Below are positions 32,197-44,730 of a stretch of 64,000 bases of DNA, piece after piece. Origin of the DNA: Candidatus Nomurabacteria bacterium (GTDB taxonomy: Bacteria; Patescibacteriota; Minisyncoccia; Phycocordibacterales; UBA9973). The stretch covers positions 18,729-82,728 of the forward strand of contig JAPLXU010000020.1 of the NCBI GenBank assembly GCA_026395915.1. Reading direction: 5' to 3'. The notes under the pieces are model-generated. The model worked only from the letters and a program-made list of their open reading frames with translations. It was not told the origin of the DNA and did no database searches. The stretch's first letter is position 1. Every line of letters starts with the position of its first letter. A program made the position numbers and the translations under genes.

Positions 32197-32625
32197 ATGG
32201 AAACACATCCGAGAGTCGGATTGGGAATAGTCATCGTCAACAAAGACGGGAGAGTTTTGGTTGGCAAACGAAAGGGCGGTCATGCCCAAAAATATTCCAT
32301 TCCAGGAGGACATTTGGAAATGGGAGAGACTTTCGAGCAGGCGGCTATCCGAGAGGCGAAAGAGGAAACTAACCTGGACATCTTTGAGCCGAAATTAATT
32401 TGTGTCATAAATGACCTCGAGACATACAGTGAGGAAGGGAAGCACTACGTGTCTGCTGGACTGCTCGCGACAAAATATTCCGGCGAATTGAAAGTTATGG
32501 AACCGGAAAAATGCGAAAGCTGGAGCTGGGTTGATCCAAAAAATCTTCCCGAACCGCACTTCGACGCGAGCCGTATGGAAGTCAAATGTTATTTGAATGG
32601 AAGTTTTTATGAGGTGGTAAAATAG
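32197..32625 (+). CDS. NUDIX hydrolase (MutT-like)
   Basis: Nudix box GGHLEMGETFEQAAIREAKEETNL. Confidence 0.8.
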   Translation: METHPRVGLGIVIVNKDGRVLVGKRKGGHAQKYSIPGGHLEMGETFEQAAIREAKEETNLDIFEPKLICVINDLETYSEEGKHYVSAGLLATKYSGELKVMEPEKCESWSWVDPKNLPEPHFDASRMEVKCYLNGSFYEVVK

Positions 32626-33106: not shown

Positions 33107-36100
33107 ATGGCTGAAAAAGATGAAAAAGGAAAAAGCGACGCCGCCCTGCGCGAAGAGCGGGTTTTGGAGTTTTGGAAAGAAAATAAAATTTTTGAAAAGT
33201 CTCTGAAACAAACCGAGAACGGGAAAGAATATATTTTTTACGAAGGCCCGCCGACGGCAAACGGCAAGCCGGGGATTCATCACTTGGAGGCGCGAGCTTT
33301 CAAGGATGTCATTCCTAGATACAAAACAATGCGCGGTTTTCATGTCCGCCGAAAATGCGGATGGGACACGCATGGTCTGCCAGTGGAGCTTCAGGTAGAA
33401 AAAAAACTCGGACTCAATTCTAAAAAAGCTATCGAAGAATATGGCGTTGCTAAATTTAACCAAGAATGCAAGGAAAGCGTCTGGGAGTATTTGGATATTT
33501 GGAATAAATTCACGAAGCGCATCGGTTTTTGGCTTGATCAAGAGCACCCCTATGTGACTTATCAAAACAATTATATCGAGTCTGTCTGGAATATAATCAA
33601 GAAAGTTAACGGGCAAAAACTTTTATACAAGGATTACAAAGTTGTGCCGTGGTGTCCGAGATGCGGGACGGCTCTCTCTTCGCACGAGCTCGCGCAGGGG
33701 TACGAAGATGTGAAAGATTTGTCGGTTTATGTGAAGTTTCGCGTACTTGGCGGAGGAACTGTCCTCTCGGGGTCGCTGTCTGGGTCTGCTGACCCAGCGC
33801 TCACTCTCGGTTCGTCAGCCTGCGAGAGACCCCGCGACGACAGTTCCTCCGCCGACACTTTTTTCCTTGCTTGGACGACGACGCCTTGGACTCTTCCGGG
33901 TAATGTGGCTCTGGCTGTTGGCAAGGATATTGATTATGTGAAAATATCCGCCAAAGGCGGATCCGCCTCTGGAGGAAAAATCGGAAATGAAATTTATATT
34001 TTAGCAAAGGCTCGGCTTTCGGTAATCACTGAGCCGTTTGAGATCATCGAGGAAATGAAAGGTAAAGATTTAATTGGTTTTGCATACGAACCACTTTTTA
34101 CGTTTCTTGCCGACATTATTTCGGAAAGCGAACCTGTCCGCAATGCTTCAGGCATAACTGATGCAGGCGAAAAACCAAAATTGGAAAAAGCCTACAAAGT
34201 TTACGGCGCGGATTTTGTGAATACGGAAGACGGAACGGGCATCGTGCACACAGCCGTGATGTATGGGCAAGATGATTTCGTGTTGGGGACACAGATTGGT
34301 TTGCCGAAGCATCACCTCGTTGGGCTTGATGGCAAATTCTTAGCGGGGACGGGATTTTTGGAAGGCAGATTTGTGAAAGAAAAAGACGCAAACGGCAAGC
34401 CGACCTTGGATGTGGACATTATTAAATATCTGACTGAGAAAAATCTGTTTTTCAAAAAGGAAAATTATGAGCACTCGTATCCGCATTGTTGGCGATGTCA
34501 CACGGCGCTCATTTACTACGCTCGGGATTCTTGGTATATCCGAATGTCGGATCCGAAAATCAAAGAGAAATTAATCAACGAGAACAAAAAAATAAATTGG
34601 GAGCCGTCCTATATTAAAGACGGGCGTTTCGGTGAATGGTTGAAGGATGTCAAAGATTGGGCAATATCGCGCGAACGATATTGGGGATCGCCACTGCCTG
34701 TCTGGATCTGCGAGTCTTGCAAAAAAGTTGATGTGATCGGAAGCGTAGCTGATTTGAAAGCCAAAACGAAAAAATCCGGCAATAAATATTTTGTGATGAG
34801 ACATGGGGAGGCGGAGAACAATGTCCTTGATATTGTTTCAAGCAATCCAAATAATACTCACCATCTTACGGAAAAAGGAAAGAAACAAATAGAAAAAGCA
34901 GCTCAATTTTTAATTGATAAAAATATCGATATAATTTTTACTTCTACATTTTTACGAGCACGAGAGACATCAGATTTAATCGCTGGAATAATGAAGTTTT
35001 CTCCACAAGATATAAGAACAGATTCAAGATTAATTGAAATAAATGACGGAACTTTTGACAATAAATCTGTAAAGCAAGTTTATGATTTTTTTGTAAATAA
35101 TAATTTAGATAGATATGATACTGGTTGTCAGGGTGGCGAGAGTATAGTTGATGTTAAAAAAAGAGTGGGGGAATTTATTTATGAAATTGATCAAAGATAT
35201 CAAAATAAAAATATATTAATTATTACGCACGAAGATACAGCTTGGGCATTGTTTTCCGTGATTAATGGTTTTAACAAAAAAGAAACAACTCAAGATAAAA
35301 AATATGATTTTATGCTAGATAATGCTCAAATCAGAGAACTTGATTTTGTTCCTATCCCTCATAACGAAAATTATGAACTTGATTTGCACAAGCCTTACAT
35401 TGATGAAGTTAGTCTTGTTTGTGCCCGTTCGACAAGCTCAGGACAAGCTTGCGGTGGAAAATTAATTAGGACAAAAGAGGTGATGGACGTTTGGCTTGAT
35501 TCTGGCGCTATGCCTTTTGCTCAAGATCACTATCCTTTCGAAAATAAAAAATGGGTGGAGGGGAAAGGTTATCCCGCGGATTTTATTTCGGAGGCCATAG
35601 ACCAGACTCGCGGATGGTTTTACACTTTGCATGCTATCGGGACGCTGATGGGGCGGGGGATGGCTTACAAAAATGTCATTTGTCTTGGTCATCTTCTAGA
35701 CGCGTCTGGCAAAAAAATGTCCAAGTCTCTCGGCAACATTGTCGATCCTTGGACGATGATTGAAAAATACGGCGCAGACACGCTTCGCCTATGGATGTAT
35801 TCTGTGAACCAACCGGGCGAATCTAAAAATTTTGACGAGAAGACAGTCAACCTGCTTCATCAGCAAGTTTTCGGTTTGCTTTACAACGTGCTCGCTTTTT
35901 ACGAACTATACAGAGATAAGAACTTAGAGAAGAACCTCACCCCTTCGCCCCTCTCCTTGTTAAGGAGAGGAGTTGGGGAGGGGTCTAACGTTTTGGACAA
36001 ATGGATCTTGGCCAGACTCGATGAATTGACGGAGCTTTCCACAAAAAATCTCGACAGTTATAAACTGCTCGAGCCGGTGAGAGGTATACAAGATTTTATC

Positions 36101-36841
36101 GGAGATCTTTCCACTTGGTATTTGCGTCGTTCGCGTGAACGAATAAAAAATGGCGACCTTGAAGCCAAAGCGACTCTTTATTTTGTTTTGAAAAATCTCG
36201 CGAAAATCATAGCCCCTTTTGCGCCTTTCTCAGCAGAAGATATTTGGCGCCGATTAAAAAATGAAAACGATTCGGAGAGCGTGCATTTGGCGAAGTGGCC
36301 GAACATGTCAAGGACGGTCCTTGACATGTTCGGCAGTAAAAAATCAAAAGTTCTCAAAAACATGGAAAATGTCCGAAAAATCGTGACTCTTGGACTTGAG
36401 GCTCGCCAAAAAGCTGGCATCAAGGTTCGTCAGCCACTTGCCATGCTCACTCTCAAGAATTTAGATTTTCATGAACTTGGTCCAAGTCTGGTTGAACTTA
36501 TAAAAGATGAAATTAATGTTAAAGAAGTAGTTATTGATACAATCATATCAGATGAAGCTATGTTGGATATTGAAATTACTCCGGAACTAAAACAAGAAGG
36601 GAATTATCGCGAGCTGGCGCGGGCGATTCAAGATATGCGTAAAAAGATGGGTCTGACGCCGAGCGATAGAGTTTCTCTCGTTTTTGAAACAGGCGAGGAA
36701 GGCAAAAAGTTAGTCCAAAAATTTGAGACTGAAATGAAAAAAACCATCTTGGCGGCGGAAATAAATTTCGGGCAAAATAACGGCGAGGAAATAAAAGTAG
36801 ACAGTTTGGTGTTCAAGATAAAAATTGGTAAAATAAAATAA
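33107..36841 (+). CDS. ileS: isoleucine--tRNA ligase (type 2) carrying three in-frame insertions including a histidine-phosphatase (PGAM-like) domain
   Basis: HIGH-like PGIHHLEA, AWTTTPWTLP, WAISRERYWGSPLP, KMSKSLGN; 1244 aa, about 200 aa longer than typical. Confidence 0.9.
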   Translation: MAEKDEKGKSDAALREERVLEFWKENKIFEKSLKQTENGKEYIFYEGPPTANGKPGIHHLEARAFKDVIPRYKTMRGFHVRRKCGWDTHGLPVELQVEKKLGLNSKKAIEEYGVAKFNQECKESVWEYLDIWNKFTKRIGFWLDQEHPYVTYQNNYIESVWNIIKKVNGQKLLYKDYKVVPWCPRCGTALSSHELAQGYEDVKDLSVYVKFRVLGGGTVLSGSLSGSADPALTLGSSACERPRDDSSSADTFFLAWTTTPWTLPGNVALAVGKDIDYVKISAKGGSASGGKIGNEIYILAKARLSVITEPFEIIEEMKGKDLIGFAYEPLFTFLADIISESEPVRNASGITDAGEKPKLEKAYKVYGADFVNTEDGTGIVHTAVMYGQDDFVLGTQIGLPKHHLVGLDGKFLAGTGFLEGRFVKEKDANGKPTLDVDIIKYLTEKNLFFKKENYEHSYPHCWRCHTALIYYARDSWYIRMSDPKIKEKLINENKKINWEPSYIKDGRFGEWLKDVKDWAISRERYWGSPLPVWICESCKKVDVIGSVADLKAKTKKSGNKYFVMRHGEAENNVLDIVSSNPNNTHHLTEKGKKQIEKAAQFLIDKNIDIIFTSTFLRARETSDLIAGIMKFSPQDIRTDSRLIEINDGTFDNKSVKQVYDFFVNNNLDRYDTGCQGGESIVDVKKRVGEFIYEIDQRYQNKNILIITHEDTAWALFSVINGFNKKETTQDKKYDFMLDNAQIRELDFVPIPHNENYELDLHKPYIDEVSLVCARSTSSGQACGGKLIRTKEVMDVWLDSGAMPFAQDHYPFENKKWVEGKGYPADFISEAIDQTRGWFYTLHAIGTLMGRGMAYKNVICLGHLLDASGKKMSKSLGNIVDPWTMIEKYGADTLRLWMYSVNQPGESKNFDEKTVNLLHQQVFGLLYNVLAFYELYRDKNLEKNLTPSPLSLLRRGVGEGSNVLDKWILARLDELTELSTKNLDSYKLLEPVRGIQDFIGDLSTWYLRRSRERIKNGDLEAKATLYFVLKNLAKIIAPFAPFSAEDIWRRLKNENDSESVHLAKWPNMSRTVLDMFGSKKSKVLKNMENVRKIVTLGLEARQKAGIKVRQPLAMLTLKNLDFHELGPSLVELIKDEINVKEVVIDTIISDEAMLDIEITPELKQEGNYRELARAIQDMRKKMGLTPSDRVSLVFETGEEGKKLVQKFETEMKKTILAAEINFGQNNGEEIKVDSLVFKIKIGKIK
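33759..33852. repeat. 94-bp GC-rich compound palindrome (ggcggaggaactgtc ... gacagttcctccgcc) in-frame in ileS just before AWTTTPWTLP
   Basis: outer 15-bp perfect inverted repeat plus inner ctgggtc/acccag hairpin; encodes GGGTVLSGSLSGSADPALTLGSSACERPRDDSSSAD. Confidence 0.8.
34781..35380 (+). other. inserted histidine phosphatase (phosphoglycerate-mutase-like) domain within ileS; AT-rich relative to rest of gene
   Basis: RHGEAENN (RHG motif), LTEKGKKQ, TSTFLRARETS, ILIITHEDTAW; lies between WICESCKKVDVIGS and LDLHKPYIDEV which are normally about 45 aa apart. Confidence 0.65.
35936..35984. repeat. GC-rich hairpin cccctctccttgttaaggagagg with G/C-rich flanks, in-frame in ileS (encodes TPSPLSLLRRGVGEGS)
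   Basis: palindrome read directly; same ctctcct/aggagag core as elements at 56461 and 62019. Confidence 0.75.
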
Positions 36842-36857
36842 ATAAAGGTATCGCTTT

Positions 36858-36868
36858 CTGCTATCGCA
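36858..36868 (+). promoter_or_regulatory. 11-mer ctgctatcgca upstream of regulator gene 36884; second copy at 37402
   Basis: exact 11-mer shared by the two promoter regions flanking the regulator gene. Confidence 0.4.
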
Positions 36869-36883
36869 GAATTTGCTACCTTT

Positions 36884-37381
36884 GTGGGATTATTATATAA
36901 TAGGCTTATGTCAATCATCCTTGATATTTTAGAAGAACTAAATCATAGCAATCTTCGTTACAAGGGAATGCATGTAAATTTGCTTGGCATACCTAAATTA
37001 TCTTCATATAAATATGAATCTCTTAAATCTGGAATTAGTAAATTAAAAAAGAAGCAATATATAACCAAAAACAATTCCGGCTGGATAATGACACCCAAAG
37101 GGAAGAAATATTTTGAAAGAAAATATAATTCCTTAACACAATTTGATTCTCCTTTTTCAAAAAATAATTCTAAAAATTTGCTTGTCATGTTTGATATACC
37201 AGAGGTAAAAAAAGCGGAGAGGGAATGGTTCAGGTGGCATCTCAAAAAGTTCAATTATATCATGATCCAGAAAAGTGTCTGGCGAGGACCTTCTCCTTTA
37301 CCTAAAGAGTTTCTTGATTATGTGAAAAAGATAGGACTTCGGAAAAACTTAAAAATGCTTAAGATATCTAAAACTTATTAG
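36884..37381 (+). CDS. winged-helix regulator with C-terminal Cas2/PaaX_C-like signature (165 aa)
   Basis: C-terminal LLVMFDIPEVKKAEREWFRWHLKKFNYIMIQKSVWRGP (hhh-FDIPE ... R ... L ... GF ... QxSVW); paralog at 44039. Confidence 0.55.
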   Translation: MGLLYNRLMSIILDILEELNHSNLRYKGMHVNLLGIPKLSSYKYESLKSGISKLKKKQYITKNNSGWIMTPKGKKYFERKYNSLTQFDSPFSKNNSKNLLVMFDIPEVKKAEREWFRWHLKKFNYIMIQKSVWRGPSPLPKEFLDYVKKIGLRKNLKMLKISKTY

Positions 37382-37401
37382 TAATAAAAAGGTACCAAAC
37401 T

Positions 37402-37412
37402 CTGCTATCGCA
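37402..37412 (+). promoter_or_regulatory. second copy of ctgctatcgca, between ggtacc inverted repeats, upstream of 2H/MBL gene pair
   Basis: read directly; followed by -10-like tatggtaaaat. Confidence 0.4.
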
Positions 37413-37478
37413 AAAAATGGTACCTGTGATACCTTTAAGTGTTTTTCTTGATTTTTAGTTTTATGGTAAAATAGAATT

Positions 37479-37997
37479 ATGGAAAGTAAATTTAAATTCA
37501 TGTGTGAAAAAAATAAATATACAATTTCTGCGACAAACACTATTAGTTTGCCAGTTTTACTGAAAGATTTGCCTAGCGAAGTAGTGATAAATGGCAACAA
37601 ACTTATACTAAAATCTTCTTTTCATGTCAGTCTAGTGTGTATCAATGAAATTATAAAGAAATACTGTATCTCTGTTCCAAATTTTAGGAATTTAGTGGTG
37701 AAAGATTTTTGTGATTTTGTAAAAACAAATGACATATATCTTTTGAATTATCTCGAAGAATTTAGATTTGTCACAGAAAATGATCTAAAGACAGTGATAG
37801 TTATATGTAAGGTATCTAACTTAGATAAATTTTTCGATTTTATAAATAAAAAATACAAATTGAAAATCGAATATCCTCCCACTCATGTAACCTTATACAC
37901 CTTGGAGGGAAAATTAGGAATTTTTCTAATTGATGCTAATGATATAAAAAATCTAACAAAATCTATTCCAAATCCAATAGAGCATTCATTATTATGA
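37479..37997 (+). CDS. 2H phosphoesterase superfamily protein (LigT/Acb1-like), 172 aa
   Basis: two H-x-[ST]-x motifs preceded by hydrophobics: SSFHVSLV and PTHVTLYT, about 98 aa apart; size typical of minimal 2H enzymes. Confidence 0.45.
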   Translation: MESKFKFMCEKNKYTISATNTISLPVLLKDLPSEVVINGNKLILKSSFHVSLVCINEIIKKYCISVPNFRNLVVKDFCDFVKTNDIYLLNYLEEFRFVTENDLKTVIVICKVSNLDKFFDFINKKYKLKIEYPPTHVTLYTLEGKLGIFLIDANDIKNLTKSIPNPIEHSLL

Positions 37998-38614
37998 AAA
38001 TTACAAAATTCGAACAATCTGGGGTTATTTTTGAAACAAACGGGGGATTTCGTTTAGCTTTGGATATTGGTAAGTATACGCCATTGGAAAAATTGGCAGG
38101 CGTTACGGCGGATGCAGTGATTGTGTCTCATATTCATGGCGATCATTTTTCTTTGGATCAAATTAAAAAATTATCTCCAAAAAAATTGTATCTGGGAAGT
38201 GAATGTAAAGAAGCCTTAGGTAGAGCAAAGTTTCCGTTTGAAATTGTGGAAATAAAGGCCGGAGATCATATTGATACTGGAGGTATTGTAGTCGATATTT
38301 TTAGTGTTGATCATGGTCCGAATGCTTCTCCGTCGCTTCGAGATAATTTCGGTTTTCTTATCACAGTCGATGGAGAGAAGATATATTTTGCAGGAGAAAT
38401 GTTTTACGAATCGGGGATTGAAGTAAAAAATCTTGAGGTTGATTACGCTTTTTTCCCAATTGGGACTTTTTACACTTTTGGTCCAAATGAAGCGTTTAAT
38501 TTTGCCAAAAAATTCAAAAAAATCGGGAAAATTATTTTGATGCATTATGAAAAAACCCCAGAAACCAGAAATCAATTTTTAAAGTTATCAGAAGGTCATT
38601 TTGTTGTTGAGTAA
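37994..38614 (+). CDS. small MBL-fold metallo-hydrolase (206 aa)
   Basis: HxHxDH motif VIVSHIHGDHF; ATGA overlap with preceding gene indicates translational coupling. Confidence 0.7.
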   Translation: MKITKFEQSGVIFETNGGFRLALDIGKYTPLEKLAGVTADAVIVSHIHGDHFSLDQIKKLSPKKLYLGSECKEALGRAKFPFEIVEIKAGDHIDTGGIVVDIFSVDHGPNASPSLRDNFGFLITVDGEKIYFAGEMFYESGIEVKNLEVDYAFFPIGTFYTFGPNEAFNFAKKFKKIGKIILMHYEKTPETRNQFLKLSEGHFVVE

Positions 38615-38626
38615 TAAAAAATTCTA

Positions 38627-39232
38627 ATGCATCACATTTATCACACGGAAGGAATAATCTTGGGAAGCAGGGGTTACGGCGAAGCGGGTAAGTATTATTA
38701 TATTTTCACCCGCGATTTGGGAATGATCACGGCTTCGGCTCAAGGTGTGCGCAAGATGTCTTCCAAGCTCCGTTTCGTTCTGCAGGACTTTTCTTATATC
38801 AAAGTTGACCTCGTGCAAGGCAAAAATATTTTTCGAGTGACGAATGTCATAAAAACAAATAAATTGGAGCAAATCACAAAGACGCCGGAAACTTTTGCTG
38901 TCTTTGTAAACATCGCGCGTCTACTTCGACGCCTGCTCGCCGGTGTCGAGCCGAACGAAACTCTATTCGCGGACTTGTTGCAAGGTCTGTCTATTTTAGA
39001 AAAAATTTCTGACAAGGGCGAATTGGCTCCCGACTTTCAAGACAGCTTGCGTAACATTGAGGCGATTATAGTTTTGCGAATACTGAACAATTTGGGATAC
39101 ATAGGCGAAAATGAAATGTTGCAGAATTTAGTCAAATCTCCGTTTGAAGAAAATCTTGTGTTCGAAATTTCGAGAGACAGAGCGAAAGTGTTGCATCAAA
39201 TCAACAAGGCTCTCAAAGAAACTCATTTATAA
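38627..39232 (+). CDS. recO: DNA repair protein RecO-like (N-terminal OB-fold type, no zinc finger)
   Basis: EGIILGSRGYGEAGKYYYIFTRDLGMITASAQGVRKMSSKLRFVLQ pattern matches RecO N-terminus. Confidence 0.55.
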   Translation: MHHIYHTEGIILGSRGYGEAGKYYYIFTRDLGMITASAQGVRKMSSKLRFVLQDFSYIKVDLVQGKNIFRVTNVIKTNKLEQITKTPETFAVFVNIARLLRRLLAGVEPNETLFADLLQGLSILEKISDKGELAPDFQDSLRNIEAIIVLRILNNLGYIGENEMLQNLVKSPFEENLVFEISRDRAKVLHQINKALKETHL

Positions 39233-39286: not shown

Positions 39287-40024
39287 TTACTTTTTCTGCA
39301 GTGGGTTTGGGTTCGGTGTATATTTCTGCGCCTCTTTTATGTCTGCTTCCTCTTGCTCCCTCATCTCTGGAGAAATGAGATATTCATCGGGCTGGCCATC
39401 CCCCGTGAATTTTTTGACGGGGAAGAAGTAGTCTCCGTGACCTGTTTGACCGATGATCACAGAGTTTCCGATCAAGGGTTGAGGACCCTTCCAGATTGAG
39501 AGCGGAACTACTAACCATCGTTCCTCTTTCTTAAAAATGAGGAATTGAAGCGATTCGGATATCTCGTGATGGCTGAAGGCGATTGATCGTTCAACTAGGG
39601 TAAATGGTTTTTTCTCGAGATAAAGAAAGTCTGGACCCTTGGCATCGATAAATACAAATTCTTTGATGACTTGCGATGCAAACGCCTTCCAGACTTCAGG
39701 AGTTTTGAACTCCAAGTTGGCCTCACCTGTTTTAGCAGGATAGACAAACTCAAAGTCCGTTCCCTTGTCTGCCGAACCTCCAATGTAATACATCGTTTTA
39801 ACTTCCCCGGAGTCACCGAATTCCGCTTTGAAACAACAGCGCATTGGCCATACCGTATGATCGGTCCAGTGAACCATGACTTTAGTGCACCTTCCTTCGT
39901 CGCCATATCCACCATACCAAGGCTGGGCCACGTACTGGCCCTTTGGCATAGTCTGGCCGAACAGCGACACCGAGGTAAGAACGAGAACCGACACCAACAC
40001 CGACAGAGTAAGCAATTTTTTCAT
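39287..40024 (-). CDS. secreted hypothetical protein, GC-elevated (245 aa from MKKLL start)
   Basis: signal peptide MKKLLTLSVLVSVLVLTSVSLFGQ with GGAG RBS 7 nt upstream; region visibly GC-richer than neighbours; no family recognised. Confidence 0.6.
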   Translation of the reverse strand: MKKLLTLSVLVSVLVLTSVSLFGQTMPKGQYVAQPWYGGYGDEGRCTKVMVHWTDHTVWPMRCCFKAEFGDSGEVKTMYYIGGSADKGTDFEFVYPAKTGEANLEFKTPEVWKAFASQVIKEFVFIDAKGPDFLYLEKKPFTLVERSIAFSHHEISESLQFLIFKKEERWLVVPLSIWKGPQPLIGNSVIIGQTGHGDYFFPVKKFTGDGQPDEYLISPEMREQEEADIKEAQKYTPNPNPLQKK

Positions 40025-40138
40025 AGAACACTCCATTTTTCACAACAGGGTTCATCACCCACTTTCCACAAATTCCCTCATGTTTGAGGTAAACTTGCCC
40101 GGATAAGTTTGTTGTTTTCTAACAATATGATAGCATAG

Positions 40139-42153: not shown

Positions 42154-43470
42154 ATGTCAGGAAAAAATATAAAAAAGAATAATGATGATTTGATGGAAAA
42201 AATAGTTTCGCTTTGCAAGAGGCGAGGGTTTGTATTTCCTGGTTCGGAAATTTATGGCGGACTTGGGGGTGCTTATGATTGGGGACATTTCGGCGTTGCT
42301 TTGAAAAATAATATCAAGCAGAATTGGTGGAAAAAGTTTGTAGAATCGCGCCCTGACATGTATGGCGTTGATGCGGCTATTTTGATGCGTCAGGAAGTTT
42401 GGCAAGCGTCTGGGCATGTGGCGGGTTTTGCAGATCCCATGGTGGAATGCGAAAAATGCAAGAAAAAATTTCGTGCCGATCAACTTGAGGATAAGAAAAA
42501 GTGCGCGGAGTGCGGTGGCAAATTAGGGACTGTGGTGCAATTCAACATGATGTTTCAGACCAAGGTCGGCGCGTCAGGAGATTCGAGCGCGATATCTTAT
42601 TTGCGTCCGGAAACAGCGCAGGGAATGTTTGTGAATTTTAAAAATACAGTGGACGCTTTTCATCCGAAATTGCCTTTTGGCATGGCGCAGATCGGCAAAG
42701 CTTTCAGAAATGAAATCACCCCTCGCGATTTTCTTTTTCGACAGCGCGAATTTGAACAGATGGAAATTGAATATTTTGTAAGACAAGAAAATTGGGAAGA
42801 ACATTTTGAATACTGGAAAGGCGAGATGCTTGATTGGATGGAGGAGGTCGGTTTGGACATGGCAAAAGTTCACGAACTCGAAGTGTCAAAAGAAGACAGA
42901 GCGCATTATTCTAGCCGGACTGTCGATTTTGAATTTGATTATCCATTTGGCAAAAAAGAACTTTTTGGCTTGGCTTATCGGACCAATTTTGATTTGAAAG
43001 CGCACAAGCTGGATTATCTCGATGAAGAAAGAAGCGAGAAAATAATTCCTCACGTTATTGAGCCGACTTTTGGCGTTGACCGCGCTGTTTTGGCGGTCTT
43101 GCTTTCGGCTTACTGCGAGGATGAAAAGGACGGGGAAATTCGTTCATTCCTTAAATTGAAGCCAAATATCGCGCCTGTCATCTGCGCTGTTTCTCCACTT
43201 CTTAAAAACAAGCCCGAGCTTGTTGAATATGCGAATACAAAAGTTTACGCTCCACTCAAAACAGAGTTTGGCAGGGTAGCTTGGGATGACAATGGCAACA
43301 TAGGCAAACGCTACAGAAGGCAAGACGAAATCGGCACGCCATTTTGCATAGTGATTGATTTTGATACTTTGACGGACGACAGTGTAACCGTTCGCGACAG
43401 AGATACAGGAAAGCAGGAGAGAATAAAAGTAGTGGATCTTAAAAAATATATAAAAGAGAAAATAAGCTAA
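42154..43470 (+). CDS. glyQS: glycine--tRNA ligase (dimeric class II type)
   Basis: N-terminal RRGFVFPGSEIYGGLGGAYDWGHFG, class II motifs; 438 aa. Confidence 0.85.
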   Translation: MSGKNIKKNNDDLMEKIVSLCKRRGFVFPGSEIYGGLGGAYDWGHFGVALKNNIKQNWWKKFVESRPDMYGVDAAILMRQEVWQASGHVAGFADPMVECEKCKKKFRADQLEDKKKCAECGGKLGTVVQFNMMFQTKVGASGDSSAISYLRPETAQGMFVNFKNTVDAFHPKLPFGMAQIGKAFRNEITPRDFLFRQREFEQMEIEYFVRQENWEEHFEYWKGEMLDWMEEVGLDMAKVHELEVSKEDRAHYSSRTVDFEFDYPFGKKELFGLAYRTNFDLKAHKLDYLDEERSEKIIPHVIEPTFGVDRAVLAVLLSAYCEDEKDGEIRSFLKLKPNIAPVICAVSPLLKNKPELVEYANTKVYAPLKTEFGRVAWDDNGNIGKRYRRQDEIGTPFCIVIDFDTLTDDSVTVRDRDTGKQERIKVVDLKKYIKEKIS

Positions 43471-43967
43471 TGAAAATTTGCACTCTTGGATTTTTGTTCA
43501 GAAATGGAAAAATAATTCTTGCTCAGAAGAAACGCAAAATTGGTGTCGGTAAGTGGAATGGTTACGGCGGAAAAATGGAAGGAGAAGAAAGCAGAATAGA
43601 TTGTCTTATACGTGAGACGCTGGACGAATGTGGAGTTGTTCTGCAAAAAGAAGATTGTAATGAGCTTGGATATATTGACTTTTTTCTTGAAGACAGAAAA
43701 AAATTAAATCAAAGAGTTTTCATTTATCGTGTTAATAATTTTTCTGGCGAACCGAAAGAATCAGAAGAGATGGGTGAACCAAGAGAGTTTAATGTTAATG
43801 AGCTTCCGTATAACGAAATGATGGCTGGGGATGACAAATTTATGACTTTTGTTATTAAGATCAGGAAATTCAGAGGCGAAATTCATTTTTTGGAGAAGGA
43901 AAATAGATTAGTGAGTTCAAATGTTATTGAGATTACCGACGAAAAAAATGAAATTAAACTAAGATAA
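43470..43967 (+). CDS. NUDIX hydrolase
   Basis: Nudix box GGKMEGEESRIDCLIRETLDECGV. Confidence 0.75.
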   Translation: MKICTLGFLFRNGKIILAQKKRKIGVGKWNGYGGKMEGEESRIDCLIRETLDECGVVLQKEDCNELGYIDFFLEDRKKLNQRVFIYRVNNFSGEPKESEEMGEPREFNVNELPYNEMMAGDDKFMTFVIKIRKFRGEIHFLEKENRLVSSNVIEITDEKNEIKLR

Positions 43968-44004
43968 AAGCGATTTGGATTTTCTAAAAGAATTTACTAT
44001 AATA

Positions 44005-44016
44005 ATGCTATAGCAT
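44005..44016. promoter_or_regulatory. palindrome ATGCTATAGCAT immediately after -10 tataat, upstream of regulator gene 44039
   Basis: 12-bp perfect palindrome; near-identical 28-bp block repeated at 44654-44682. Confidence 0.5.
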
Positions 44017-44038
44017 ATTAATAGAGTGAGTAAACAAT

Positions 44039-44620
44039 ATGGGAAAGTTAGAAAAAGAATCGAGAAAAAGATCTCGCAAAGCCAATCTTCAAAAGACCAT
44101 TTTGTCTGCAATTTTTATTGCAGGTGGGCTTAGTATAGCCTTAATGGCCACTAAAATGACAAAAATTTTTAACAAGATTGAGCCAGATTTCATGAAAAGC
44201 AAGTATCGTAAATATTCCTTTAATCGTTCATTGGAAAGATTAAAAAAGAATGATTTGATTTTTTGGGAAAAAATAAATGGAAAGAATCTAGTGCGTCTTA
44301 CGTCAAAAGGTGAGGCAAAGTTGCGACAATTAGAAATTAATGATTTCAAAATAAAAAAACCGAGGCGATGGGATCAGAAATGGCGACTTCTGGCTTTCGA
44401 TATAAAAGAAGAAAGGAGAGGTTTGAGAAACAAGATTCGTCATACCCTGAGACAGATAGGCTTTATCCGCCTACAGGATAGTGTGTGGGTTTATCCTTAC
44501 GATTGCGAAGATTTGGTAATGTTGCTTAAGGCTGATTTCAAAATAGGTAAGGACTTGATTTATATAATTGCGGATAGTATAGAAAATGATAAATTCCTGC
44601 GAAAGGAATTTGACCTATAA
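44039..44620 (+). CDS. winged-helix regulator with Cas2/PaaX_C-like C-terminal signature, paralog of 36884 (193 aa)
   Basis: KWRLLAFDIKEERRGLRNKIRHTLRQIGFIRLQDSVWVYP. Confidence 0.55.
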   Translation: MGKLEKESRKRSRKANLQKTILSAIFIAGGLSIALMATKMTKIFNKIEPDFMKSKYRKYSFNRSLERLKKNDLIFWEKINGKNLVRLTSKGEAKLRQLEINDFKIKKPRRWDQKWRLLAFDIKEERRGLRNKIRHTLRQIGFIRLQDSVWVYPYDCEDLVMLLKADFKIGKDLIYIIADSIENDKFLRKEFDL

Positions 44621-44660
44621 TTCAAAGTCACTTTTATGTTTTAATTAGTTCGCTATAATT

Positions 44661-44672
44661 ATGCTATAGCAT
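44661..44672. promoter_or_regulatory. second copy of palindrome ATGCTATAGCAT after -10 tataat, in promoter of M16 peptidase gene
   Basis: gctataattatgctatagcatataaatag vs actataataatgctatagcatattaatag upstream of regulator. Confidence 0.5.
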
Positions 44673-44730
44673 ATAAATAGTGTAATGATTCGATTTGTGT
44701 TAGATGTATTTGTTATGGTATATTTTATTT

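Follow-up and report, generated by a model that had tools for sequence, protein, structure and literature searches.

The window, as we call the whole stretch of 64,000 nucleotides (nt) analysed here, belongs to contig JAPLXU010000020.1 of a Candidatus Nomurabacteria bacterium and holds three small genes between ileS and recO: REG, which encodes a regulator; P172, which encodes a protein of the 2H superfamily; and MBL, which encodes a hydrolase of the metallo-beta-lactamase (MBL) fold. Together with their neighbors these form a co-directional run of five genes (ileS, REG, P172, MBL and recO), as seen in the open reading frame (ORF) listing and the sequence. A preliminary description had taken the three small genes as one unit, in which the regulator controls a pair of enzymes degrading cyclic-nucleotide signals. 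Comparison with related loci inclines us, with a confidence a little better than even, to another view: P172 and MBL are independent accessory cassettes in a variable slot between ileS and recO, beside an autoregulated REG, and the three do not make up a fixed unit.

The left edge of the slot is ileS (33107..36841, forward strand), placed by synteny and carrying an AT-rich His_Phos_1 insertion. Three nt past its stop codon lies the U site (36844..36883), a 40-nt imperfect palindrome whose right arm contains TTGCTA, which is the -35 element of the REG promoter (36873..36901, forward strand; TTGCTA-17-TATAAT). The -10 element of this promoter ends 6 nt before the ATG of REG (36908..37381, forward strand), a 157 amino acid (aa) protein with a winged-helix part and a PaaX_M/Cas2-like part. 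The regulator starts at the ATG at 36908 and not at a GTG at 36884: gene callers give the 157-aa product, and all orthologs begin MSI. A second copy of the palindrome, the D site (37388..37427), lies 6 nt past the REG stop codon. It is followed by the extended -10 element of P172 (TGGTAAAAT, 37464..37472, forward strand), a generic cassette promoter of the TGTGATAAAAT type that ends 6 nt before the ATG; a consensus scan offers TTGATT-18-TAGAAT (37448-37477) as an alternative promoter. REG directly precedes P172 (37479..37997, forward strand; 172 aa), and the overlap described between the 172-aa and 206-aa genes is present, the ATG of MBL (37994-37996) and the TGA of P172 (37995-37997) forming an ATGA. 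MBL (37994..38614, forward strand) encodes a 206-aa hydrolase of the Lactamase_B_3/UPF0173 type. Twelve nt further on, recO (38627..39232, forward strand) marks the right edge of the slot and is probably co-transcribed with MBL.

Two small hydrolases of the slot

The two H-x-[ST]-x motifs noted earlier in P172 (SSFHVSLV and PTHVTLYT; numbered, FH49VS51LV and TH136VT138LY) are present and conserved. Across 48 homologs S51, H136 and T138 do not vary, and at least 90% retain H49; among 104 diverse representatives of the family H136 is again invariant, with H49 and T138 each kept in at least 90%. The AlphaFold model (48 homologs; mean predicted local distance difference test score, pLDDT, 93.7) displays the 2H alpha+beta fold, and its structural matches are 2H phosphoesterases only, as the preliminary description had expected of a structure check; with these motifs and this predicted structure the assignment of P172 to the 2H superfamily is sound. 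Sequence comparison reaches less far. The window P172 gives nothing significant in Pfam, NCBIfam, PADLOC, PHROGs or a PDB sequence search, and its profile finds 2fyh and PH0099 in the PDB weakly (E 0.23-1.8). The commonest Pfam matches among the 104 distant representatives are LigT_PEase (7), 2H-SAK (5; best E 3.9e-6) and 2_5_RNA_ligase2 (4). Fusions among the relatives are few and involve NUDIX (twice, in both orders), ASCH, SnoaL and a 6-phosphogluconolactonase domain. The family amounts to 231 clusters at 90% identity in a word-indexed search and to 424 representatives at 50% in an exhaustive hidden Markov model (HMM) search.

Known 2H enzymes close to P172 are PH0099 LigT (1vgj), the D. 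radiodurans cyclic phosphodiesterase (CPDase, 5h7f), Usb1 (5v1m) and mouse hepatitis virus (MHV) ns2 (4z5v). P172 resembles the LigT/ThpR type in being a single domain of about 170 aa with two H-x-S/T motifs about 87 residues apart, and in that distant members of its family weakly match Pfam 2H models. Unlike that type, the P172 family is nearly confined to Patescibacteria, and its genes are AT-rich to an unusual degree and behave like mobile cassettes. A literature search for 2H enzymes in Patescibacteria found nothing. The family is undescribed and distinct from every characterised 2H subfamily, and the scores of the modelled structure point to no particular substrate.

MBL carries the SHIHGDHF motif attributed to it and is a member of Pfam Lactamase_B_3 (E 1.8e-17; 64.2 bits against a cut-off of 24), while its score with NCBIfam PRK00685 (52 bits) lies under the cut-off of 144. 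The closest protein in the PDB by sequence is the UPF0173 member TM_1162 (E 3e-8), then 3kl7 and TM0207, and 3kl7 and TM_1162 also lead the structural matches. The metal ligands are all kept: H46, H48, D50, H51, H107 and H184 never vary, and the residue at position 135 is either D or E. We considered that a D135E change had inactivated the window protein and rejected this, as Glu stands here in 11 of 43 family members (the window and 10 of 42 relatives) beside Asp in 32. With the solved UPF0173/Lactamase_B_3 proteins (TM_1162, 3x2x; Igni18, 6hrg; 3kl7) MBL shares the HxHxDH motif followed by His107, D/E135 and His184, a length of about 200-230 aa and the lack of any accessory domain; it differs from them in being 19-27% identical and in the replacement of the bridging Asp by Glu. 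Igni18, a UPF0173 member, has proved experimentally promiscuous, with phosphodiesterase among its activities (PMC7846560). MBL is a minimal metallo-hydrolase of the UPF0173 type and most likely acts as a broad-specificity phosphodiesterase.

Gene content of the ileS-recO slot

Scanning the GTDB species representatives with P172 yielded 36 loci, Patescibacteria almost throughout; the comparison set further includes about 20 loci of REG orthologs (L004, L040-L057) and four MBL loci. In 13 of the P172-found loci and in the window, which makes 14 species-level loci, the order is ileS, a variable part, P172, recO and the gene for P670; in the remaining 20 or so P172 stands among unrelated housekeeping genes. 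The variable part of the P172-found slots holds a REG-like gene in three loci (L004, L006, L009) and an HD-domain gene in five (L008, L010, L012, L013, L026), and further genes there encode a serine hydrolase, a haloacid dehalogenase-type (HAD) protein or an MBL. The preliminary description had made its case depend on conserved linkage among homologs, and this linkage is lacking: MBL adjoins P172 in three of the 14 complete P172-found slots, namely the window lineage, L008 and L013, the last with MBL upstream. Outside the slot, a distant MBL lies two genes from P172 in L029.

A similar fluidity is seen on the side of the regulator. REG orthologs at 69% identity or more are all found in the ileS-recO slot, and the gene that follows them varies. 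It is MBL in L040/44, L041, L043/54, L047 and L053, a different MBL in L048, and a NUDIX gene plus MBL in L049; HD genes follow in L055 and L056, and a protein of about 188 aa with no function assigned in L045/46 and L050. In three loci recO comes directly after REG (L051, L052 and, past an unannotated 47-aa ORF, L042), and the succession of REG and P172 occurs in the window lineage and L004 only. Of the loci found with MBL, L124 and L125 have it in a slot that lacks both REG and P172, and L126 and L127 in unrelated contexts. MBL is thus met more often without P172 than with it. Because seven of the eight complete REG-ascertained slots that lack P172 hold an MBL, against three of the 14 P172-ascertained slots, P172 and MBL behave as alternative cassettes rather than partners. 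The trio of REG, P172 and MBL, which had been presented as one unit, is confined to the window lineage, and the pairing of a 2H with an MBL protein here is a lineage-specific juxtaposition and not a conserved two-enzyme system.

Several features of the cassettes suggest that they are mobile. In the window the GC content dips to 26-35% over REG, P172 and MBL, against about 42% in ileS and recO, and the slot is lower in GC than the core in all 25 of 25 loci. P172 keeps to 24-31% GC (L004-L031) while the core genes span 30 to 52%; in L021, ileS has 49%, recO 52% and P172 29%. The pairwise divergence of P172 shows practically no correlation with that of the adjacent recO (Spearman 0.20, compared with 0.66 for recO and P670, the pairs not being independent). 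Since P172 keeps its low GC content and its divergence is decoupled from that of recO, repeated exchange from a low-GC gene pool is suggested. The cassettes also often carry an extended -10 element (TGTGATAAAAT): elements of this type precede P172, MBL or recO in L004, L040, L043, L048, L051, L055 and L056, and a close variant, TGTGCTAAAAT, is found in L052. In the cases with a measured spacing, namely REG and P172 of the window, the P172 gene of L004 and MBL of L040 and L043, exactly 6 nt separate the end of the -10 element from the start codon, and leaderless mRNAs may therefore be common among these genes.

Other genes in and around the slot deserve mention. A further cassette of about 185-199 aa (MEDFLIEARKLAY...HHGV.KFYSLESEI.CNADC) recurs in L045:622-1188, L050:3534-4112, L125:2935-3489 and L031:5342-5941; it has no Pfam match and is unrelated to P172. 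Between recO and the 670-aa gene of the window lies a reverse-strand ORF (39287-40036; 249 aa) with a signal-peptide-like N-terminus, which is confined to the window lineage (L001-L003), recO being followed directly by the 670-aa gene in relatives. At the left edge, the ileS product contains an inserted His_Phos_1 domain of about 170 aa (residues about 556-725, about 34770-35280) with a local GC content of 28-30%. The order tRNA-synt_1, His_Phos_1, tRNA-synt_1 is repeated in L040, L042, L043, L124 and L125, and the insertion is absent from the IleS of L009 and L021; we know of no description of an isoleucyl-tRNA synthetase with such an insertion.

REG and its paired palindromes

REG matches the Pfam model PaaX_M at E 8e-11 (its description is 'PaaX central Cas2-like domain') and CRISPR_Cas2 at E 2.6e-5, and winged-helix models match its N-terminal half weakly (HTH_45, E 0.011); two Cas2 models score at the borderline (24.8 bits against a cut-off of 23.8, and 26.1 against 24.5). 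A PaaX_C domain was not found in REG, and TIGR02277 reaches 13 bits against a cut-off of 265, so that of the three-part PaaX architecture of winged helix-turn-helix (wHTH), PaaX_M and PaaX_C the last part is missing. A Cas2/PaaX_C-like C-terminus had been ascribed to the regulator; the domain there is PaaX_M instead of PaaX_C. The databases name the protein 'CRISPR-associated endonuclease Cas2' (NCBI) and 'PaaX' (JGI), and neither name is accurate. A Cas2 would be expected within a cas operon accompanied by a CRISPR array. In the window no array of CRISPR-like repeats is present, the proteins encoded there do not include cas1, and REG has an extra N-terminal wHTH; the idea of REG as a true Cas2 was rejected on these grounds, and because both array and cas1 are missing the NCBI label is a mis-annotation. 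Like the PaaX family, REG has the central PaaX_M domain after a winged helix and stands beside palindromic operator-like sites; unlike it, REG has 157 aa where PaaX has about 280-300, and phenylacetate genes were not found near REG. A literature search for PaaX/Cas2-like regulators gave no result. Within the Cas2-like domain D96, the conserved Asp of an FDIPE motif, is invariant in 40 orthologs.

The 11-mer CTGCTATCGCA, which the preliminary description had located in both promoters, does occur twice (36858 and 37402), though only its upstream copy, within U, overlaps a promoter. Taken alone it is weak evidence and not beyond chance, because two or more matches arise in 9 of 100 shuffles when one mismatch is allowed. 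It is, however, the core of the 40-41-nt imperfect palindrome whose copies are U and D, which are 76% identical. The pair is kept in every REG-ortholog locus in which both flanks are readable (L004, L040-L057), and this conservation is far beyond chance. In 13 of the 16 loci with a scorable U, exactly 24 nt separate the end of this site from the REG ATG, and in L041 and L042 it is a perfect 40-bp palindrome. The REG promoter is the best promoter-like match of the region (10 of 12 positions), and its arrangement is repeated in orthologous loci. With the -10 element ending 6 nt before the ATG, the REG mRNA is probably leaderless. Since U overlaps the REG -35 element at a fixed distance, U is most likely the operator of REG and REG a self-repressor; REG is probably an autoregulated DNA-binding regulator.

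The D site is placed differently. It falls just past the stop codon of REG, with the P172 -10 element about 40 nt further downstream; across orthologs its start ranges from 4 nt before the end of the stop codon to 28 nt after it, a run of T often follows, and the distance to the ATG of the next gene varies from about 49 to 71 nt. A role as part of the downstream promoter was rejected, in view of this spacing and of the lack of a -10 partner such as U has. Because the distance to the next start is 49-71 nt, with no fixed phasing and no promoter of its own, D is better explained as a terminator of REG and/or a second, auxiliary operator, most likely one or both of these, than as a switch of the downstream genes.

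Both sites have the makings of a hairpin. For 31 distinct sites together, the share of paired cells is 81%, compared with 31-45% in slid controls. Pair 8:33 is CG in 12 sites, GC in 8, UA in 1 and UG in 1, and is unpaired in 9, and pair 9:32 is CG, UA or UG and never unpaired. The covariation score exceeds that of 497 of 500 shuffles, with the reservation that independent events are few and the variation is mostly that between the U class and the D class. The predicted RNA folds have z values of -4.3 to -7.7 (-4.9 for U and -4.3 for D of the window). A known RNA element was considered and rejected, Rfam at E<=1 returning no family and a single chance match to a snoRNA.

Paralogous regulators are flanked by repeated palindromes of their own: ATGCTATAGCAT directly after the TATAAT box in L004:10567-11169 and window 44039-44620, and AACGG[C/T]CGTT in L006 and L009. 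The window example is a second PaaX_M-type regulator (44039-44620, 193 aa) bracketed by two copies of TATAAT plus ATGCTATAGCATA (43995-44025 and 44651-44682), one before the start of the regulator and the other before an M16 peptidase at 44704. These cases suggest that an 'operator-regulator-operator' design is general for PaaX_M-type regulators in genomes of the candidate phyla radiation (CPR).

Competing explanations and significance

The explanation that we favor is that the ileS-recO gap of this Nomurabacteria-like Patescibacterium is a variable slot for small AT-rich hydrolase genes (2H, MBL, HD, HAD, NUDIX and serine hydrolase), several of them preceded by a -10 promoter element of their own, and that the slot of the window is made up of three independent pieces: REG, P172 and MBL. 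REG would repress itself through U, with D acting as terminator and/or second operator, and P172, MBL and recO would share a single transcript whose promoter, probably a leaderless one, lies right ahead of P172. Through its H-x-S/T motifs P172 most likely opens cyclic phosphates, either the 2',3'-cyclic ones at the ends of RNA fragments or on nucleotides, or a related kind such as ADP-ribose-1'',2''-cyclic phosphate (Appr>p). The analysis itself shows the folds and motifs, the synteny and its variability, the GC pattern and the conservation of the palindromes; the substrates, the autoregulation and the structure of the transcripts are inferred. The role of the cassettes would most likely be the clean-up or salvage of RNA and nucleotide 2',3'-cyclic phosphates.

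Several points weigh against this explanation. The loci were ascertained with each protein in turn, which biases the co-occurrence frequencies, and the contigs are mostly fragments, so that a gene absent from the slot could lie elsewhere in the same genome. The ATGA overlap implies that P172 and MBL are co-expressed in this genome, and their adjacency is found in two other lineages (L008, L013), in both gene orders, so that the two may have some functional synergy. The window P172 and its 47 close homologs match no 2H model of Pfam or NCBIfam, even at E 5, and the salvage or house-cleaning role is deduced from the kinds of neighboring cassettes alone. REG may control P172 and MBL through the D site.

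The earlier proposal was that REG, P172 and MBL form a regulated module that breaks down cyclic nucleotides or oligonucleotides serving as immune signals or second messengers, a cellular counterpart of Acb1 plus Apyc1 for use in signal turnover or anti-defence. There are real likenesses behind it. Like P172, Acb1 (7t27, 9q2y) is a small protein of the 2H fold with a pair of catalytic His motifs (PMC9117128), and Apyc1 and other class II phosphodiesterases (PDEs; 7u2r, YhfI, yeast PDE1, RNase Z) share with MBL the fold and the di-metal site, Apyc1 itself being a class II PDE in the class II PDE/YhfI/RNase Z branch (PMC9117128). The likenesses do not extend further. The P172 model is less similar to Acb1 than to LigT, Usb1 and CPDase, and no viral model came below E 0.01 in a Foldseek search. 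Acb1 is phage-encoded and directed at host CBASS (cyclic oligonucleotide-based anti-phage signalling), unlike P172, which is encoded by the cell among housekeeping genes, in the chromosomal ileS-recO slot, and has no PHROG match. MBL lies outside the class II PDE branch and is not phage-encoded; its similarity to Apyc1 in sequence (E 0.25) covers the HxHxDH motif only, and it has no match to Anti-Pycsar_Apyc1 (PF23023) at E<=1. Profile scans of IMG/VR with REG, P172 and MBL gave no relatives, and tblastn against INPHARED phages gave none for P172 and, for MBL, two 27%-identical Listeria phage fragments only. PADLOC has no match for P172 or MBL, and a PADLOC scan of 50 window proteins gave, in 25 of 27 families listed, no CBASS CD-NTase, Pycsar cyclase, Thoeris or type III CRISPR component. 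The matches in the window are to generic domains, and single proteins score strongly with SspH-like (E 2e-55), mad8, PDC-S04, SoFic and LmuA-like models. The Pfam content of the window is ordinary housekeeping (SHMT, RecA, PGK, type IV pilus/type II secretion system, FtsK, SSB, RNase H and three NUDIX, among others); the three NUDIX hydrolases are separate small proteins, two of them (probably 32197-32625 and 43470-43967) recognised by their N-terminal sequence. MBL stands beside REG without P172 in at least seven loci, P172 lacks MBL in about 11 slot loci, and the trio does not leave the window lineage. The genomic support for a signal-degrading module is lost, and we regard such a function as very improbable.

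An RNA end-healing pair deserves more credit, though we still think it unlikely. P172 would here be a cyclic phosphodiesterase for the 2',3'-cyclic phosphate ends of RNA, such as fragments of tRNA or rRNA, and MBL a small nuclease of the RNase Z/J kind, the two repairing or trimming damaged RNA. The extra domains of RNase J, RNase Z and CPSF bind the RNA substrate. MBL is a minimal 206-aa core without the extra domains of its RNase J, RNase Z and CPSF matches, its best matches are UPF0173 enzymes, the two genes are unlinked in most genomes, and the Pfam tallies of the sampled neighborhoods include no RNA ligase, Pnkp kinase, RtcA/B or Hen1. The palindromes raise a different thought, that REG with its hairpins is a site-specific nucleic-acid-processing or recombination element and perhaps the source of the variability of the slot. 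They are always paired around REG and absent from slot loci that lack it, they fold stably and show compensatory changes at some pairs, and both the invariance of D96 and the great variety of the cassettes after REG would fit such a role. Yet the slot is equally variable without REG (L005-L031, L124, L125), the covariation is modest and rests on few independent events, and no transposase or integrase lies nearby; U overlaps the promoter at a set distance, as operators typically do, and the short palindrome of the paralogs directly after the TATAAT box is a classical repressor layout. We regard a processing or recombination role for REG as very improbable. It is also improbable, if a little less so, that the slot is a dedicated exchange hotspot for phosphoesterase cassettes from a common low-GC gene pool, in which REG and its palindromes take part in the exchange or gate the next cassette, and the new 2H family destroys nucleotide-derived signals or harvests cyclic-phosphate breakdown products of host RNA.

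What is new here, and of modest novelty, is a 2H family without a Pfam or NCBIfam model, comprising at least 424 clusters at 50% identity with loci almost all in Patescibacteria, together with the slot in which its members occur as cassettes. A tempting pair of the 'Acb1 + Apyc1-like' kind can come from chance juxtaposition in a variable slot, and the widespread CPR proteins that carry the annotation 'Cas2' are small regulators, each with a pair of palindromic sites. The value lies in annotation-level knowledge, which opens no long-standing question and has a modest chance of leading to more. In the genomes concerned, AT-rich hydrolase cassettes have repeatedly been inserted between ileS and recO. 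Reduced, host-dependent bacteria are thought to rely on scavenged nucleotides, and the substrate of P172 would inform how RNA and nucleotides are turned over in them.

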